Shown here: piece after piece, positions 1 to 5,721 of the stretch
Layout of the letters: each line of letters opens with the position of its first letter
Position numbering within the stretch: position 1 is the first letter of the stretch
Assembly: GCA_028817225.1 (NCBI GenBank)
Contig: JAPPQC010000053.1
Coordinates: forward strand, 8,709-72,708
Source of the DNA: Gammaproteobacteria bacterium
GTDB lineage: Bacteria; Pseudomonadota; Gammaproteobacteria; Poriferisulfidales; Oxydemutatoraceae
Length of the DNA stretch: 64,000 nucleotides
Reading direction: 5' to 3'
Program-made: the position numbers and the translations under genes
The notes under the pieces: generated by a model
The model's database searches: none
Told to the model about the DNA's origin: nothing
The model's input: the letters and a program-made list of their open reading frames with translations, nothing else

Positions 1-5
1 GCGAC

Positions 6-206
6 TTACTCTTTCTTGTCGGAGGCTTGTTCCCCGGTGACTTTCTGCTGCTTGTCGGCGGCGGGTTCTTCCTCGTCGCCCATGGATTTCTTGAAACCTT
101 TGATGGCGTTGCCCAGATCGGAGCCCAGTCCCCTGAGCTTCTTGGTGCCGAACAAAAGCAGGACTATCACCAGAATCAGCAATATCTGCAAGGGTCCCCA
201 ACTCAT
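6..206 (-). CDS. tatA: Twin-arginine translocase subunit TatA/E
   Basis: 66-aa ORF with the canonical TatA layout: N-terminal TM helix ([15 protein letters not shown]), amphipathic helix ([22 protein letters not shown]) and acidic tail. Confidence 0.9.
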
Positions 207-358
207 ACTTCACTCCCTGTTTGGTTGCGCGCGTGCGGTTGCGTATATGGTAGCACTTTTTTGCAGTCTGTGGGCGGCGGGAGGCGGGGTGAGGGGCGGG
301 GCGAAAGGCGGGGCGGTGATGCCATCCTGTCATCACCGCCCGCAGTGCGGCGGGCTTT

Positions 359-448
359 TCAGTCCCGGCTGTACTTGTAATGGAGAAAAATCGCGATAGC
401 AAGCACCACCAGGCCAATGATGGTTCCTGCTTTTTCGTAGAAATTCAT
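359..448 (-). CDS. 29-aa single-TM micropeptide (MNFYEKAGTIIGLVVLAIAIFLHYKYSRD)
   Basis: ATG..TGA ORF below the ORF-track cutoff. It has paralogs at 459-545 and 2517-2606 with a conserved MxFYxK...HxKYxR frame around a hydrophobic helix. AAGGGA-type SD upstream. Confidence 0.45.
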   Translation of the reverse strand: MNFYEKAGTIIGLVVLAIAIFLHYKYSRD

Positions 449-458
449 TTCTTTCCCT

Positions 459-545
459 TTACCTGTTGTACTTGAAATGAATAAAAACCGCGATAGCAAA
501 CACCACCGCACTGATGATGAGCGCCGATTTTACATAGAAATTCAT
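459..545 (-). CDS. 28-aa single-TM micropeptide (MNFYVKSALIISAVVFAIAVFIHFKYNR)
   Basis: Its ATG overlaps the TGA of the upstream 67-aa ORF (ATGA at 542-545). GAAGGAGA lies just upstream. Paralogous to 359-448 and 2517-2606. Confidence 0.5.
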   Translation of the reverse strand: MNFYVKSALIISAVVFAIAVFIHFKYNR

Positions 546-745
546 TTTTTTCTCCTTCTCGTTTTTCTGCTTATTAACGCCATGCCAATGGCATAGAAGC
601 TAATTAACCACGCTATACTTGCCACGAGGCTGGACAACTTTTCTGTCAACCAGAAGGATTGGAAAAAGAGCAATCCCGCCCCGAGGTTCCCGAGGGCTAT
701 AAAACCCTTGCCCGCTTCTTCCAGCGGTTTTGTATATTTTGCCAT
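542..745 (-). CDS. 67-aa two-TM small membrane protein with a basic C-terminus (RKTRRRKK)
   Basis: ORF preceded by AAGGAGG SD 8 nt upstream. The paralog at 2603-2806 shares a nearly identical N-terminal 32 aa (MAKYTKPLEEAGKG.IALGNLGAGLLF.QSFW). Confidence 0.6.
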   Translation of the reverse strand: MAKYTKPLEEAGKGFIALGNLGAGLLFFQSFWLTEKLSSLVASIAWLISFYAIGMALISRKTRRRKK

Positions 746-954
746 GTGAGGCCACCTCCTTTGGCAGCCTTTTTGGCATTTGGCAGTGTAAAAAAGTGTA
801 AGTGTTGGAATGAGCGGTATTAAATACCCGACGAACGGTAGCTAATTTTTTCGGATTCGCTGTCATTTTGCCGGGGAACGCCGGTTGGGGGAGGGCGATG
901 TAAGGTGGAGTTTTCACACCTGAAACATTGGCGGGCCTGTAAAATATTTCGGTC

Positions 955-2442
955 ATGAAGAAAATCAACATCTCAAAATCTTCTTTTATGCGGGGCCGCC
1001 AATGTCACAAGGCATTGTGGTTGCACAAACACCGCCCTGAATTGGCGCCGCAGGAATCCGTGTCGCGTGATGCGAGGAAGTATGAAGGCACCGCTATTGG
1101 GAAACTCGCCTGTGGTTTGTTTCCCGGCGGCTATGAAGTTCCGACAGATGATTGGGACAATACGGACTTCAACGAACTGCTGGACCTGACCGACAAGTAT
1201 ATTGAGGCCGGTGATGCCCCTATCTACGAAGCCACGATATCCGCCGCCGGTGTTTTTGTGATGGTGGATATTCTTGTGCCGACGGAAAAGGGGTGGGAAA
1301 TATACGAGGTGAAAGGCTCCACCGAAGTGAAATCTCATCACTGCCATGATGCGGCAATTCAATACTATGCGCTCAAAAAGGCCGGTCTGGAAATTTCCGG
1401 CGTGTTCATTGTGCACATAAACAACGAATATGTGCGCCAGGGCGAGCTGGATATCCGGCAGTTGTTCACCATGGCGGACGTTTCAGATGAGATGATGAAT
1501 CTGCAAACAGAAATTCCCGGCGAACTGGAAGAGATGCAGAAAACCTTGCAAGATGGAGAGCCGGATATCGCCATCGGTTTGCATTGTGAGAAACCTTACA
1601 AGTGCGACTTCCGCGAATATTGCTGGAAGCATGTTCCGGAGAATTCTGTTCTTGATATTACCGGGCGCGGCAAAGAGGAAAGATTTGGTTTGTGCGAAAA
1701 AAGAGTCGTGGCTATTGCCGATTTGCCCGATGATCTTTCATTGACCAGGGAACAGCAAATTCAGGTTGAAGGGGTAAAAACCGGCAAAAGAGTTGTGAAC
1801 AAGGATGCCCTGTCCCGTTTTCTGAACACACTGCGGTATCCGCTTTGCTTTCTGGATTTTGAAACCTGGGGGCCTGCCGTTCCTCCTTTCGACAACGCCA
1901 AACCATACGGGCTGATTCCCACTCAATATTCCCTGCATGTTCTGAATAGTGAGGAAGGCAAATTGCGTCATTATGAATATCTGGCCGATGGACGGGACGA
2001 TCCGAGAGCGCAACTCACAAGGCGGCTGGTTGGGCAGATACCGGATGACTCTTGTATTCTGGTCTATAACAAAAACTTTGAAATCAGGGTGCTGAACGCG
2101 CTGGAACAGGCATGCCCTGATTATGCAGATGCTGTCGCAACCATCCGCGACAACATACGAGATTTGATGAGGCCCTTTTGTGACAAGGATTACTACACAC
2201 CTCCCATGAAAGGCAGGTATTCCATCAAGTATGTGTTGCCTGCTCTGGTGCCGGGCATGCAATACGAGGGGGAAGTCGCCGACGGCAACGCCGCGATGTA
2301 TGCTTTTGCCGTGTTGCGGGAAACCGGCGACCCAATCGAGCGCGAGAAACTCCGCCGTGCCCTGCTGGAATACTGCAAACAGGACACTCTGGCGATGGTC
2401 AGAATACTGGAGAAGGTACGCGAGGCGGCAGCTTCAGATTAG
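955..2442 (+). CDS. DUF2779-type protein: N-terminal PD-(D/E)XK Cas4/RecB-like nuclease with a Cys cluster, plus a C-terminal DEDD-like 3'-5' exonuclease fold
   Basis: 495-aa ORF. It has an N-terminal SKSSFMRGRQCHKALWL, a VDIL...EIYEVK (D...ExK) motif and a Cys triad HCEKPYKCDFREYCW that could make four Fe-S ligands together with C17. The C-terminal half has FLDFET, YNKNFE and YCKQDT (DEDDy-like) motifs. Confidence 0.8.
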   Translation: MKKINISKSSFMRGRQCHKALWLHKHRPELAPQESVSRDARKYEGTAIGKLACGLFPGGYEVPTDDWDNTDFNELLDLTDKYIEAGDAPIYEATISAAGVFVMVDILVPTEKGWEIYEVKGSTEVKSHHCHDAAIQYYALKKAGLEISGVFIVHINNEYVRQGELDIRQLFTMADVSDEMMNLQTEIPGELEEMQKTLQDGEPDIAIGLHCEKPYKCDFREYCWKHVPENSVLDITGRGKEERFGLCEKRVVAIADLPDDLSLTREQQIQVEGVKTGKRVVNKDALSRFLNTLRYPLCFLDFETWGPAVPPFDNAKPYGLIPTQYSLHVLNSEEGKLRHYEYLADGRDDPRAQLTRRLVGQIPDDSCILVYNKNFEIRVLNALEQACPDYADAVATIRDNIRDLMRPFCDKDYYTPPMKGRYSIKYVLPALVPGMQYEGEVADGNAAMYAFAVLRETGDPIEREKLRRALLEYCKQDTLAMVRILEKVREAAASD

Positions 2443-2516
2443 GCTGAAGCAATATACGCTTCAGGGCGGGGCGGTGATGTCATCCTGCAATCACCGCCCG
2501 CAGTGCGACGGGCTTT

Positions 2517-2606
2517 TCAGTCCCGTCCGTATTTGTAATGGAGAAAAATCCCCAGCGCAAGCATTACCAAACCAATAATGGCTCCCGCTTTTTCGTAGAA
2601 ACTCAT
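2517..2606 (-). CDS. 29-aa single-TM micropeptide (MSFYEKAGAIIGLVMLALGIFLHYKYGRD)
   Basis: Its ATG overlaps the TGA of the 2603-2806 ORF (ATGA). Paralog of 359-448. Confidence 0.5.
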   Translation of the reverse strand: MSFYEKAGAIIGLVMLALGIFLHYKYGRD

Positions 2607-2806
2607 TTTGTTCTCCTTTTGTAGCTCATGCTCATTAACGCCGTGCCGACGATGTAAAAGCCAATCAGCCAGATTATACTCACAACAAGACCAGACAACT
2701 TGTTCATTTCCCAAAACGATTGAACAAAAAGCAATCCCGCCCCGAGGTTCCCGAGGGCTATCAAACCCTTGCCCGCTTCTTCCAGCGGTTTTGTATATTT
2801 TGCCAT
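2603..2806 (-). CDS. 67-aa two-TM small membrane protein (paralog of 542-745)
   Basis: MAKYTKPLEEAGKGLIALGNLGAGLLFVQSFW..., with the same SD and 5' region as copy 1. Confidence 0.6.
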   Translation of the reverse strand: MAKYTKPLEEAGKGLIALGNLGAGLLFVQSFWEMNKLSGLVVSIIWLIGFYIVGTALMSMSYKRRTK

Positions 2807-2979
2807 GTGAGGCCACCTCCTTTGGCAGCCTTTTTGGCATTTGGCAGTGTAAAAAAGTGTAAGTGTTGGAATGAGCGGTATTAAATACCCGACGAACGGT
2901 ACATTTTTTTGTTTTCTGCATCAAATTGAAGTCCGGCCACGCTGCGCCGCCCGCCCCGCCGACCGCATCATTCGCCGTT

Positions 2980-3354
2980 TCACCCTCCACGGCGCCGCTT
3001 TTCCTCATGGCCGGAAGTGCCGAAGCGTCGTTCCAGTTCCGCCAGCAGTTCTTCTACTGTGATGTTCTTGTGTGCGAGCAGCACCTGGCAGTGAAACCAC
3101 AGGTCGGCCATTTCGTGGAGGATGCGTTGTCGCTGCTCCTCGCGCGCCGCCTCGTCCGTTGTCCTTGCCGCCGCATCGCCCGCTGTTCCAGCCGCCTCGC
3201 CCGCCGCCTCAATCAACTCCCCCGCTTCCTCGGCGATTTTCTCAAGAATGGCGTCGTCGCCCTTGCGGTAGAGAGAGGCGCTGTACGATTCCCCGGCGCC
3301 GGCGCTCTTGCGCTGCTCCAGCACATCGGCAATGCGCTTGATGATGTCCGCCAT
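2980..3354 (-). CDS. hisE: Phosphoribosyl-ATP pyrophosphatase (monofunctional HisE)
   Basis: MADIIKRIADVLEQRK...SYSASLYRKGDDAILEKIAEEAGELIEA...LHEMADLWFHCQVLLA. Start moved to the ATG at 3354 within ORF 2980-3414. Confidence 0.85.
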   Translation of the reverse strand: MADIIKRIADVLEQRKSAGAGESYSASLYRKGDDAILEKIAEEAGELIEAAGEAAGTAGDAAARTTDEAAREEQRQRILHEMADLWFHCQVLLAHKNITVEELLAELERRFGTSGHEEKRRRGG

Positions 3355-3435
3355 TCTGCTTCTCCCCGCCTTTGGCCTAAACGCTTTCCGGCACGCCGGC
3401 AACGCGCCCGACAACCCCCGCCCCGTCCAAACAAT

Positions 3436-4194
3436 TCAAAGCCGCACCTCCACCCCACGCCCCCGCATATACTCCTTTGCCTCGCGTATCGTATGCTCAC
3501 GATAATGAAAAATACTCGCCGCCAGCACCGCATCGGCCAGCCCCTCGGTAACGCCCTCCACCAGATGCTCCAGACAACCCACACCGCCGGAGGCGATGAC
3601 CGGTATGTTCACGCTCTCGCTGATGCGCCGCGTCAGCGCCAGGTCAAAGCCCTCGCGCGTGCCGTCGCGGTCCATGCTGGTCAGCAGGATTTCGCCGCAG
3701 CCGCAGGACTCCATCCGCCGCGCCCACTGCACGGCGTCTATGCCCGTCGGCGTGCGCCCGCCGTGCGTGTGGATTTCCCAGTGGCCGTTGTTTTTCTTCG
3801 CGTCAATCGCGACGACGATGCACTGCGTCCCCACCTTTGCAACGGCGCGGCGCACCAGATCCGGGTCGTGCACGGCGGCGGTGTTGATTGCAATCTTGTC
3901 GGCGCCGGCGCGGTGCAGCCGCCGGATGTCCTCAACATCGCGGACGCCGCCGCCGACGGTCAGCGGCATGAAGACCTCGCCCGCAACGCGCTCGACAATG
4001 CCGAGCATGATGTCGCGCCCGTCGGAACTGGCGGTGATGTCGAGAAAGGTGATTTCATCGGCGCCTTCGTCGTTGTAGCGCCTGGCGATTTCCACCGGGT
4101 CGCCGGCGTCGGTGATGTTGACAAAGTTCACGCCCTTGACAACGCGGCCCCGGTTGACATCAAGACAGGGAATGACACGCCTCGCCAGCGGCAT
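3436..4194 (-). CDS. hisF: Imidazole glycerol phosphate synthase, cyclase subunit
   Basis: [13 protein letters not shown]...[13 protein letters not shown]...IASGGVG. Start at the ATG at 4194. Confidence 0.95.
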
Positions 4195-5079: not shown

Positions 5080-5721
5080 TCAAGACGCGCCGTCCCAGCG
5101 CACAAAATTCTCCAGCAGGCGCAGGCCGTTGGCGGCGCTTTTCTCGGGGTGGAACTGCACCGCGAACACAAGGCCGGAGGCGACGGCGCAGGTGAATTCC
5201 GCGCCGTATTCGGTGCACCCGGCCACCAGCGCGCCGTCGGCGGGTTCCACATGGTAACTGTGCACAAAATAAAAATGCTCGTTGTCGGCGATGCCGTCCC
5301 ACAGCGGATGGCGCCGCGTCTGCCGCACCCGGTTCCAGCCCATGTGCGGTATCTTGCGGCCCGGCGCCGCGCCGGCGTGTTCGGCCAGGTGGCGGGCGCG
5401 GCCCGCGAACACGCCGAGGCAGTCGGTGCCGCCGTTTTCATCGCTGTGTTCAAGCAGCACTTGCAGCCCCATGCAGATTCCGAGAAACGGTTTTTCGGCG
5501 GCGGCGCGCGCCAGCGGCCCGGCAAGGCCGCGCGCGTGAATCGCGCCCATGCAGTCGCCGGCGGCGCCCTGGCCGGGAAAGACAACCTTGTCGGCGTCGT
5601 CAATCAGCCCGGCGTCGCCGCCGGTCACGATGCGCGTGCGTTCGGGGCTGACGCAGTGCAACGCCTTCTCGACCGAGCGCAGGTTGCCCATGCCGTAATC
5701 CACAATGGTGATGGTGGTCAT
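5080..5721 (-). CDS. hisH: Imidazole glycerol phosphate synthase, glutaminase subunit
   Basis: ITIVDYGMGNLRSVEKAL...GICMGLQVL...QFHPEKS. Confidence 0.95.
   Translation of the reverse strand: MTTITIVDYGMGNLRSVEKALHCVSPERTRIVTGGDAGLIDDADKVVFPGQGAAGDCMGAIHARGLAGPLARAAAEKPFLGICMGLQVLLEHSDENGGTDCLGVFAGRARHLAEHAGAAPGRKIPHMGWNRVRQTRRHPLWDGIADNEHFYFVHSYHVEPADGALVAGCTEYGAEFTCAVASGLVFAVQFHPEKSAANGLRLLENFVRWDGAS

Follow-up and report, generated by a model that had tools for sequence, protein, structure and literature searches.

The proteins of the DUF2779 family have been predicted to combine two nuclease domains, and according to the papers that discuss the family none of its members has been biochemically characterized (PMC3985635, PMC13621843). 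Here we analyze a member of this family encoded in a 64-kb stretch of gammaproteobacterial DNA (contig JAPPQC010000053.1; the whole stretch of 64,000 nucleotides is called the window), in an islet located between the core genes hisE and tatA, where the nuclease gene is bracketed by two copies of a module coding for small membrane proteins. The window protein aligns collinearly and over the full length with other DUF2779 proteins, such as MMSYN1_0389 of JCVI-syn3.0 and those from Arcobacter plasmids, exhibits 38-50% identity to them, and has the same domains and catalytic residues. It keeps four Fe-S cysteines, whereas MMSYN1_0389 has just two (PMC13621843), and its context, i.e. a hisE-tatA islet between membrane modules, is absent from 80 other DUF2779 loci.

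Two further groups of nucleases are similar to the window protein. CRISPR Cas4 and stand-alone Cas4 proteins (e.g. the Argonaute-associated ACE1, PMC12094033) have in common with it the D...E-x-K and QxxxY motifs, the four cysteines, and a fold that matches Cas4 Pcal_0546 and MGME1. Unlike Cas4, however, the window protein is fused to a DEDDy exonuclease, it scores below the cut-offs for CRISPR-associated Cas4 (Pfam PF01930, 18.5 versus 22.7 bits; TIGR00372, 10.7 versus 65), and there are neither cas genes within 5 kb on either side nor CRISPR-related genes or an Argonaute nearby. The RecB-like putative nucleases of the TM0106/COG2251 group (TIGR03491, PF13482) likewise combine a Cas4-like PD-(D/E)XK domain with an exonuclease-like domain of the RNase H fold (PMC3985635), but the window protein matches them only in a short C-terminal part (60 residues; 19.7 bits versus the TIGR03491 cut-off of 97.45) and belongs to a different family.

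With respect to its location, the islet resembles the variable islets and defense hotspots found between core genes, with which it shares a fixed position, a foreign composition, differing cargo of defense type, and decayed remnants. Unlike the usual hotspots, it is devoid of an integrase, tRNA, or mobile backbone, and its constant part comprises tandem membrane-protein operons with a homogenized 5' block, as well as solitary leaders at the junctions. The modules in turn resemble the tandem type I toxin-antitoxin loci (ldr/rdl, ibs/sib, zor/orz, and aapA/isoA), which likewise encode small hydrophobic peptides behind a structured leader that occludes the ribosome-binding site, and which form tandem arrays of variable copy number between core genes. 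They differ from these loci in that no antisense RNA was detected for the modules, and in that a 67-aa partner of the peptide and the synteny of the two genes are conserved across phyla. The islet thus represents a known kind of locus, a variable islet between core genes with cargo of defense type, and its nuclease belongs to a known family.

The variable islet between hisE and tatA

The reading we favor, with moderate confidence and on the basis of sequence comparisons, is that the locus is a strain-variable accessory islet in which duplicated membrane modules frame an exchangeable cargo slot, and that DUF2779, its cargo in the window, would be an active dual nuclease. Each module consists of a leader termed here E_up, the gene of a 67-aa membrane protein (A67), one or more overlapping genes of 28-29-aa peptides (b29 and its relatives), and a hairpin element (T_hp); the hisE-proximal copy is termed M1 and the tatA-proximal copy M2.

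The interval between the two core genes comprises 2773 bp (207-2979). We surveyed 80 genomes of Gamma- and Betaproteobacteria with hisF 66-72% identical; in about 60 of them hisE is followed by tatA on the same strand, with a gap of 31-570 bp (1102 bp in one case), and the DNA of the islet is therefore an insertion relative to the common state. The first-pass annotation of this stretch, made from its sequence, had stated that the interval is usually short and that here it holds DNA of lower GC content; both statements agree with our results. The GC content of the islet is 0.503, compared to 0.658 for the whole window, and it is the sole 1-kb stretch with a value below 0.60 in the 64 kb. Along the beginning of the window the values are 0.44-0.52 over positions 300-2900 and 0.62-0.71 beyond. 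Codon usage sets the islet apart as well: third codon positions have a GC content of 0.54-0.58 in its genes, compared to 0.73-0.87 for his and tat. As also noted in the first-pass annotation, no integrase or transposase is present, either within 207-2979 or among the genes called in the 5 kb on either side, so that there is no recombinase at or near the islet of the sort that defines an integrase-mediated genomic island or an integron array.

Comparison of the slot among close relatives reveals a pattern of presence, absence, and decay. The relatives are represented by 17 contigs from metagenomes or metagenome-assembled genomes (MAGs), reached by exact or near-exact A67 and DUF2779 proteins and mapped with BLAST. 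In the window the order from his to tat is hisE, M1, DUF2779 (on the opposite strand), M2, and tatA. In the contigs L006-L010 the order is M1, 323 bp, M2, and tatA, and DUF2779 is absent. We considered whether the 323-bp spacer could be a truly empty site and rejected this, because it encodes, on the opposite strand, 73 residues from the C-terminus of a DUF6979 protein (Pfam 2.1e-17, positions 54-126 of the 127-position profile). In L005, L011, and L012, hisE is followed by E_up with 40 nt of A67, a 186-aa open reading frame (ORF) that overlaps a gene of a type II N6/N4 methyltransferase (PADLOC MTase_II, 2.5e-133), a solo E_up, DUF2779 on the opposite strand, and a module. The 186-aa ORF and the methyltransferase constitute a putative type II restriction-modification pair, and in L011 this cassette is flanked by two copies of E_up (315-447 and 1966-2068). 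In L011-L013 we also found, further on, a 333-aa protein (with a match to a TIR-like effector at 1.5e-9 and a weak one to nucleoside 2-deoxyribosyltransferase), followed by a 253-aa protein without assignment.

Other relatives carry remnants. L017 has the order of the L011 type, with a 185-aa gene without assignment located between two modules; its 186-aa putative restriction gene (995-1551) is frameshifted and its methyltransferase is intact and conserved (dN, the nonsynonymous divergence, is 0.015 and dS, the synonymous divergence, is 0.23 versus L011), so that decay of this pair seems to be leading to an orphan methylase. L017 also keeps, at 5334-5364, a 31-bp remnant of the cargo end marked by the hairpin just past the DUF2779 stop codon. 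L014 and L015 contain the 185-aa gene, the last 92 codons of DUF2779, and a module with three peptide genes; here a deletion ends exactly at the position of the DUF2779 start codon (L014 900-1190, L015 156-447; window position 2157 joined to 952). Both the presence and the content of the islet hence differ among close strains, and the arrangement is not a conserved core feature, in agreement with the suggestion of an accessory, compositionally foreign islet.

The comparison with strain L008 bears on how the content changes. Its TatA protein is 100% identical to that of the window, and the dS values of tatA, tatB, and tatC are 0-0.04, while those of A67 are 0.18 (M2) and 0.32 (M1) and the cargo is different; near-identical tat flanks next to diverged modules and cargo indicate that the whole islet was replaced by a divergent allele. 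We infer from these patterns that islets may be exchanged by homologous recombination via the core flanks or the modules, and that the remnants probably arose by deletion.

The sampling of the slot is affected by the repeats themselves. The contigs L007, L008, L010, and L194 end in or beside E_up, the distant homologs in L101 and L102 are located at contig ends too, and the GTDB representative RKSI01000193.1, which matches the his side of the window collinearly (86-93% identity), ends inside E_up just past hisE. The repeats probably break assemblies, and the islet content is probably under-sampled in MAGs. Metagenome scans with the conserved E_up and A67 patterns returned 0 matches, evidently from a collection without relevant samples. 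In L006 (1-1200) ORF-poor DNA with GC content of 0.36-0.46 takes the place of A67 in module 1; this DNA matches nothing else that we fetched.

The islet is bounded by tatA (6-206, minus strand; Pfam TatA_B_E, E = 1.2e-12) on one side and by hisE (2980-3354, minus strand; Pfam PRA-PH, 3.9e-15; 124 aa as called) on the other, and beyond hisE are located hisF, hisA, hisH, and hisB. At 3355-3435, hisE directly follows hisF, with no hisI between them; this arrangement is present also in a minority of the 80 compared genomes (e.g. L020, L022, L028, and L035), and in most of the 80 about 400 bp separate the two genes.

The DUF2779 nuclease and its place in bacterial genomes

The DUF2779 gene (955-2442, plus strand) is transcribed divergently from M2 and encodes a protein of 495 aa with an N-terminal Cas4-type PD-(D/E)XK domain, including four cysteines, and a C-terminal DEDDy exonuclease domain of the RNase H fold. 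The protein matches the complete Pfam DUF2779 model (PF11074, positions 1-126) with 127 bits versus a cut-off of 23.3 (E = 6.9e-37), as well as Pfam RNase_H_2 (7.4e-7), and more than 100 homologs align to it at 98-100% query coverage; a scan against NCBIfam returned nothing above cut-off. Among 30 homologs the invariant residues are C17, D105, E118-V-K120, Q136, C211, C217, and C223, which correspond to the RecB/Cas4 motifs and the four Fe-S cysteines, and D301 and E303 (FLDFET), E376 (YNKNFE), and Y473 and D477 (YCKQDT), which correspond to the DEDDy exonuclease. An AlphaFold (AF2) model was obtained with a pLDDT (per-residue confidence) of 91.3 and a pTM (predicted template modeling score) of 0.85, and Foldseek matched its halves to RNase T, MGME1, and Cas4 Pcal_0546 with probability of 0.97-1.0, the whole-chain E-values being only about 1e-3. 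All the motifs quoted in the first-pass annotation are among the invariant ones, and the fold matches cover both domains, which agrees with its prediction of a Cas4/RecB-like and DEDD-like dual nuclease.

The gene is delimited from the modules by a 5' spacer specific to DUF2779 (870-954, plus strand), which is the portion of the divergent intergenic region nearest the cargo and is partly conserved beside DUF2779 in L005, L011, L014, and L017, and by a predicted hairpin directly after the stop codon (2444-2464, plus strand), which marks the other cargo-side boundary. Between the window and L017 or L011 the dS of DUF2779 is 0.21-0.36 with dN/dS of 0.27-0.29, and the dS of the his genes of these lineages is 0.18-0.95. 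As the two divergences are comparable, the gene appears to be an old resident of the clade rather than a recent arrival. Judging by these rates and by its distribution, DUF2779 is apparently under purifying selection and yet dispensable, a selected resident lost by some strains.

Analysis of 80 DUF2779 loci from Campylobacterota, Desulfobacterota, Bacteroidota, and other phyla (38-46% identity) revealed no fixed partner: the 271 neighbor proteins form 244 clusters. The commonest among the 134 immediate neighbors are PDDEXK_4/PDC-S26 (4-5), GmrSD_N (3), and WYL (3), followed by McrBC, IetA, dGTPase, mad2, and phage integrase (2 each); these are raw counts, taken without a genome-wide background, and hence suggestive only. 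The closer relatives of the window protein adjoin either a WYL protein plus an AAA ATPase, HicA plus a fragment of IS1595, or a methyltransferase. The gene is present on 32 plasmids, mostly from Arcobacter, Aliarcobacter, and Helicobacter, and is essentially absent from phages, in which we found just two partial matches. On two of the Arcobacter/Aliarcobacter plasmids (L192 5791-8476 and L193 5905-8470) it directly follows a gene annotated as "PD-(D/E)XK nuclease family protein", with which it may form a two-gene unit, and the neighborhoods include the M subunit of a type I restriction-modification system, WYL, Fic, and an ATP-dependent endonuclease. An ORF similar to A67 was found within 8 kb of DUF2779 in none of the 80 loci (one marginal match had E = 4.6e-4). 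The search for co-occurrence proposed in the first-pass annotation had a divided outcome, as A67-type ORFs do not accompany DUF2779 in these loci and defense-type neighbors (PDC-S26, GmrSD, McrBC, and WYL) often do. The cargo of the slot and these neighbors are suggestive of a defense role for DUF2779.

It is possible, although we regard it as unlikely, that DUF2779 is instead a housekeeping protein that processes DNA ends in repair or recombination, and that the islet is old and neutral and uninvolved in conflicts with mobile elements. The family is widespread across phyla at 38-50% identity and is under purifying selection, its divergence within the clade is similar to that of the his genes, and its member in the minimal Mycoplasma JCVI-syn3.0 is quasi-essential (PMC13621843). 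However, within a single species-level cluster the gene is present, absent, or decayed, the composition of the islet is foreign, and the neighbors elsewhere are unrelated to one another and in many cases of defense type, to which its presence on plasmids can be added.

Several observations weigh against the exchangeable defense-type slot that we prefer. The his-like divergence between lineages makes DUF2779 look like an old resident, and the quasi-essentiality in JCVI-syn3.0 points to housekeeping DNA processing (PMC13621843). The proteins of the islet match no defense system in PADLOC-DB v2, DUF2779 giving just weak matches to Cas4 adaptation models (best 8.1e-7). The exchange by homologous recombination is deduced from patterns, most of the relatives are represented by short contigs from metagenomes, interrupted at the repeats, and some architectures are incomplete, with chimeric assemblies possible. 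Finally, in L009 (1-2500) the genes upstream of module 1 are those of an S41 peptidase and a Gcw_chp protein and not hisE; this stretch has a core-like GC content of 0.61-0.65 and neither gene is found in the 64-kb window, so that the difference could be due to a rearrangement at the islet or to a different gene order in the strain.

The membrane modules

In M2, reading along its direction of transcription on the minus strand, E_up (746-869) is a conserved non-coding leader and promoter region, of which 746-840 is common to the right copy and 841-869 to the modules of relatives. It is followed by A67 (542-745), for which two membrane helices are predicted and whose C-terminus is basic, by b28 (459-545), which encodes a 28-aa peptide and is a tandem duplicate of b29 (61% identical), and by b29 (359-448), whose translation is a 29-aa membrane peptide with a single helix, MNFYEKAGTIIGLVVLAIAIFLHYKYSRD. 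The ATG of b28 overlaps the stop codon of A67 (ATGA); this additional ORF in the left repeat copy was overlooked in the first-pass annotation. The module ends with T_hp (305-358), a two-hairpin element with an inverted repeat at 311-341, a T-run on the plus strand, and a terminator-like site at 338-355 (plus strand). M1 comprises E_up (2807-2910, minus strand), truncated where the 3' flank of hisE begins, A67 (2603-2806, minus strand; 73% aa identity to the left copy), b29 (2517-2606, minus strand; MSFYEKAGAIIGLVMLALGIFLHYKYGRD; 79% identical to the left copy), whose ATG overlaps the A67 stop codon, and T_hp (2465-2516), identified in the scan for inverted repeats and terminators. T_hp occurs in just two copies in the window and is present after every module in the relatives; the number of peptide genes per module ranges from one to three in the window and its relatives.

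The beginning of the A67 transcript is predicted to fold into a leader hairpin (740-778 and again 2801-2839, minus strand), in which both the Shine-Dalgarno sequence and the start codon (AUG) of A67 are base-paired (minimum free energy of -19.6 kcal/mol, z = -2.6). One pair carries a compensatory G-C to C-G change that divides the sequences 5 to 4 and probably corresponds to a single evolutionary event.

A scan for sigma-70-like promoters on both strands returned none, and no Rfam model matched positions 1-3500 at E <= 1. A sigma-54-like TGGCAG-N5-TTGG motif noticed by eye on the plus strand of E_up was rejected, as both its spacing and the -12 element are wrong; in the right E_up it would also point into hisE in antisense orientation. 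A terminator-like hairpin with a T-run is located on the plus strand at 712-727 and 2773-2788, i.e. within the first codons of A67 and antisense to them, and the promoter scan found no promoter upstream of it. Searches with A67, b28, and b29 against Pfam, NCBIfam, PHROGs, PADLOC, and the sequences of the PDB yielded only noise. By inspection, two helices and a basic C-terminus are reminiscent of a class II holin or pinholin, but we rejected this assignment as there is no PHROGs match, no phage or plasmid match for the A67 family, and no lysis gene near the islet in the window.

The alignment of the A67 family has 30 invariant columns. Among 5.8 billion proteins, the close A67 family forms just 10 clusters, and with a profile search it widens to about 86 proteins, which are 60-70 aa long and come mainly from Campylobacterota. 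At every readable locus the next ORF overlaps or abuts the A67-family gene and encodes a 29-40-aa peptide with a single helix, and the pair is therefore conserved. In all five Campylobacterota genomes examined (L184-L188) it is located inside clusters for nucleotide sugars and polysaccharides (GDP-mannose/fucose, UDP-sugar, or dTDP-rhamnose), namely between Gmd and Fcl-ManC, between WecB and Ugd, or after RmlD, with an overlapping peptide gene of 33-40 aa (e.g. L185 5001-5306). Two distant A67 homologs are found on contigs shorter than 700 bp, which reveal nothing of their context. In three other loci its contexts differ, and a family query against phage and plasmid collections gave no match. 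The recurrence of the pair with the same overlap across bacteria, together with dN/dS below 1 for A67 and, relative to both paralogs and orthologs, for b29, indicates that A67 and the peptide genes are real. In our reading A67 and b29 may assemble into a small hetero-oligomeric complex in the membrane, and the leader would gate its synthesis.

The first-pass annotation had considered the nuclease, bracketed by the modules, worth testing as a defense or addiction locus. In a single defense system the nuclease would sense or attack foreign DNA, while A67 and b29 would be its effector or partner, in a manner resembling abortive infection. Within the lineage DUF2779 always has an A67 module as its divergent neighbor (7 contigs, 3 lineages), the tightly closed leader suggests a product that needs restraint, and the slot otherwise holds defense-type genes. 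A single functional unit is nevertheless improbable, as the modules occur without DUF2779 in L006-L010 and beside decayed DUF2779 in L014 and L015, no A67-like ORF is located within 8 kb of DUF2779 in the 80 loci from other phyla, the Campylobacterota pair resides in sugar-nucleotide and polysaccharide clusters and not in defense islands, and the membrane proteins have no PADLOC or PHROGs match.

We also give little credence to the modules as addiction cassettes of the type I toxin-antitoxin kind, which would stabilize the islet, with DUF2779 as hitch-hiking cargo. The 28-29-aa peptides are small and hydrophobic, the mRNA is occluded by a conserved hairpin, and the diverged copies are arranged in tandem and vary in number between core genes; the hairpin is that of the upstream A67 gene. 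The promoter scan detected no antisense promoter or small RNA, there is no Rfam match, and A67 is conserved with its partner across phyla, in the case of Campylobacterota in biosynthetic operons with overlapping genes, which is at odds with a selfish cassette of this kind.

A more far-reaching idea is that the A67/b29 modules constitute an integrase-independent cassette platform, in which E_up and T_hp would act as capture sites, E_up would double as a gated promoter and leader, and the pair would represent a novel family of membrane effectors, expressed conditionally and working with the adjacent cargo. Solo copies of E_up are indeed found at cassette junctions, one of them directly upstream of the restriction-modification pair, and the module leader is more conserved than the neighboring housekeeping genes. 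Copies of both E_up and T_hp occur at such junctions; both are also parts of an expressed operon. We hold the idea of such a platform to be improbable.

Origin of the repeats and turnover of the slot

The direct repeats around the DUF2779 gene claimed in the first-pass annotation are real and extend over 307-869 and 2465-2910; a match of this strength was obtained in 0 of 100 shuffles. Their mosaic structure, a near-identical block within diverged sequence, also stands, with modified limits: the block (669-840 and 2730-2901) is 172 bp long with one mismatch and spans 95 bp of the leader and 25 codons from the start of A67, instead of the roughly 190 bp and 32 codons given before. Outside the block the repeats are 67-85% identical.

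The two parts of the repeats have different histories. Over the last 126 nt of A67, the window M2 is 87% identical to M2 of L008 and M1 is 81% identical to M1 of L008, while the two window copies are only 67% identical to each other; the 3' part of the window M1 is closest to M1 of L008 and to the module of L011 (81-82%). The 3' parts thus group by position across strains, and the duplication therefore predates the split of the strains and is independent of DUF2779, so that the modules are, as far as such comparisons can tell, old paralogs. The first 75 nt of A67 behave in the opposite way, with a dS between paralogs of 0 in the window and 0.057 in L008, compared to 1.8 (saturated) and 0.56, respectively, in the rest of the gene, and the dS of the 5' block between lineages is 0.12-0.33. 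Paralogs are closer than orthologs in the 5' block and the reverse holds downstream, a signature of gene conversion limited to E_up and the start of the gene. The near-identical 5' block would then fit gene conversion within a genome. Its conservation is unusual, 85-100% among all copies of E_up, at a dS of 0.18-0.95 for the his genes of the same lineages.

Of the two origins suggested in the first-pass annotation, duplication followed by partial gene conversion agrees with these values, and a Campbell-type insertion does not. The latter, in which a circle with DUF2779 and one module would recombine once with a resident module, within its 172-bp block, accounts for direct repeats that share a near-identical block and flank the nuclease, and for the similar placement of the L011 restriction-modification cassette between two copies of E_up, but it is very unlikely, since a strain with near-identical tat genes (L008) already has both orthologous modules without DUF2779, the saturated divergence outside the block makes the copies old, a crossover alone does not equalize the blocks, and we found neither a circular form nor an integrase, and no copy of the module in plasmids or phages.

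For the strain-variable slot, we propose the following scenario. Its framework would be a tandem, anciently duplicated operon of small membrane proteins, in whose leader a hairpin ties up the ribosome-binding site and the start codon, and in which one to three 28-29-aa peptides would be translationally coupled to A67 in each module. Gene conversion would keep the 5' block, i.e. the leader and the first 25 codons, near-identical and so produce the mosaic repeats. The space between or beside the modules would serve as a slot with strain-specific content, here DUF2779, and cargo would be gained, lost, and swapped by homologous recombination over the modules and the core flanks, and decay by deletion, with no involvement of a site-specific integrase. 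DUF2779 itself, with its Cas4-like Fe-S PD-(D/E)XK and DEDDy 3'-5' exonuclease domains, is predicted to be an active dual nuclease, which would probably trim or degrade DNA ends of both polarities, most likely those of incoming foreign DNA.

Neither the DUF2779 series nor the A67/b29 family alters current concepts. The window A67 pair is a textbook-clear case of partial gene conversion, and the analysis brings to the surface an unannotated family that comprises a 60-70-aa two-helix protein and an overlapping 29-40-aa peptide and ranges from the polysaccharide loci of Campylobacterota to a gammaproteobacterium. For the widespread DUF2779 nucleases, the islet provides a natural series of presence, absence, and decay, and since DUF2779 shares its slot with a putative restriction-modification pair and a TIR-like gene, and elsewhere has neighbors of defense type, among them a recurrent PD-(D/E)XK (PDC-S26-type) partner on Arcobacter plasmids, a role in defense becomes directly testable.

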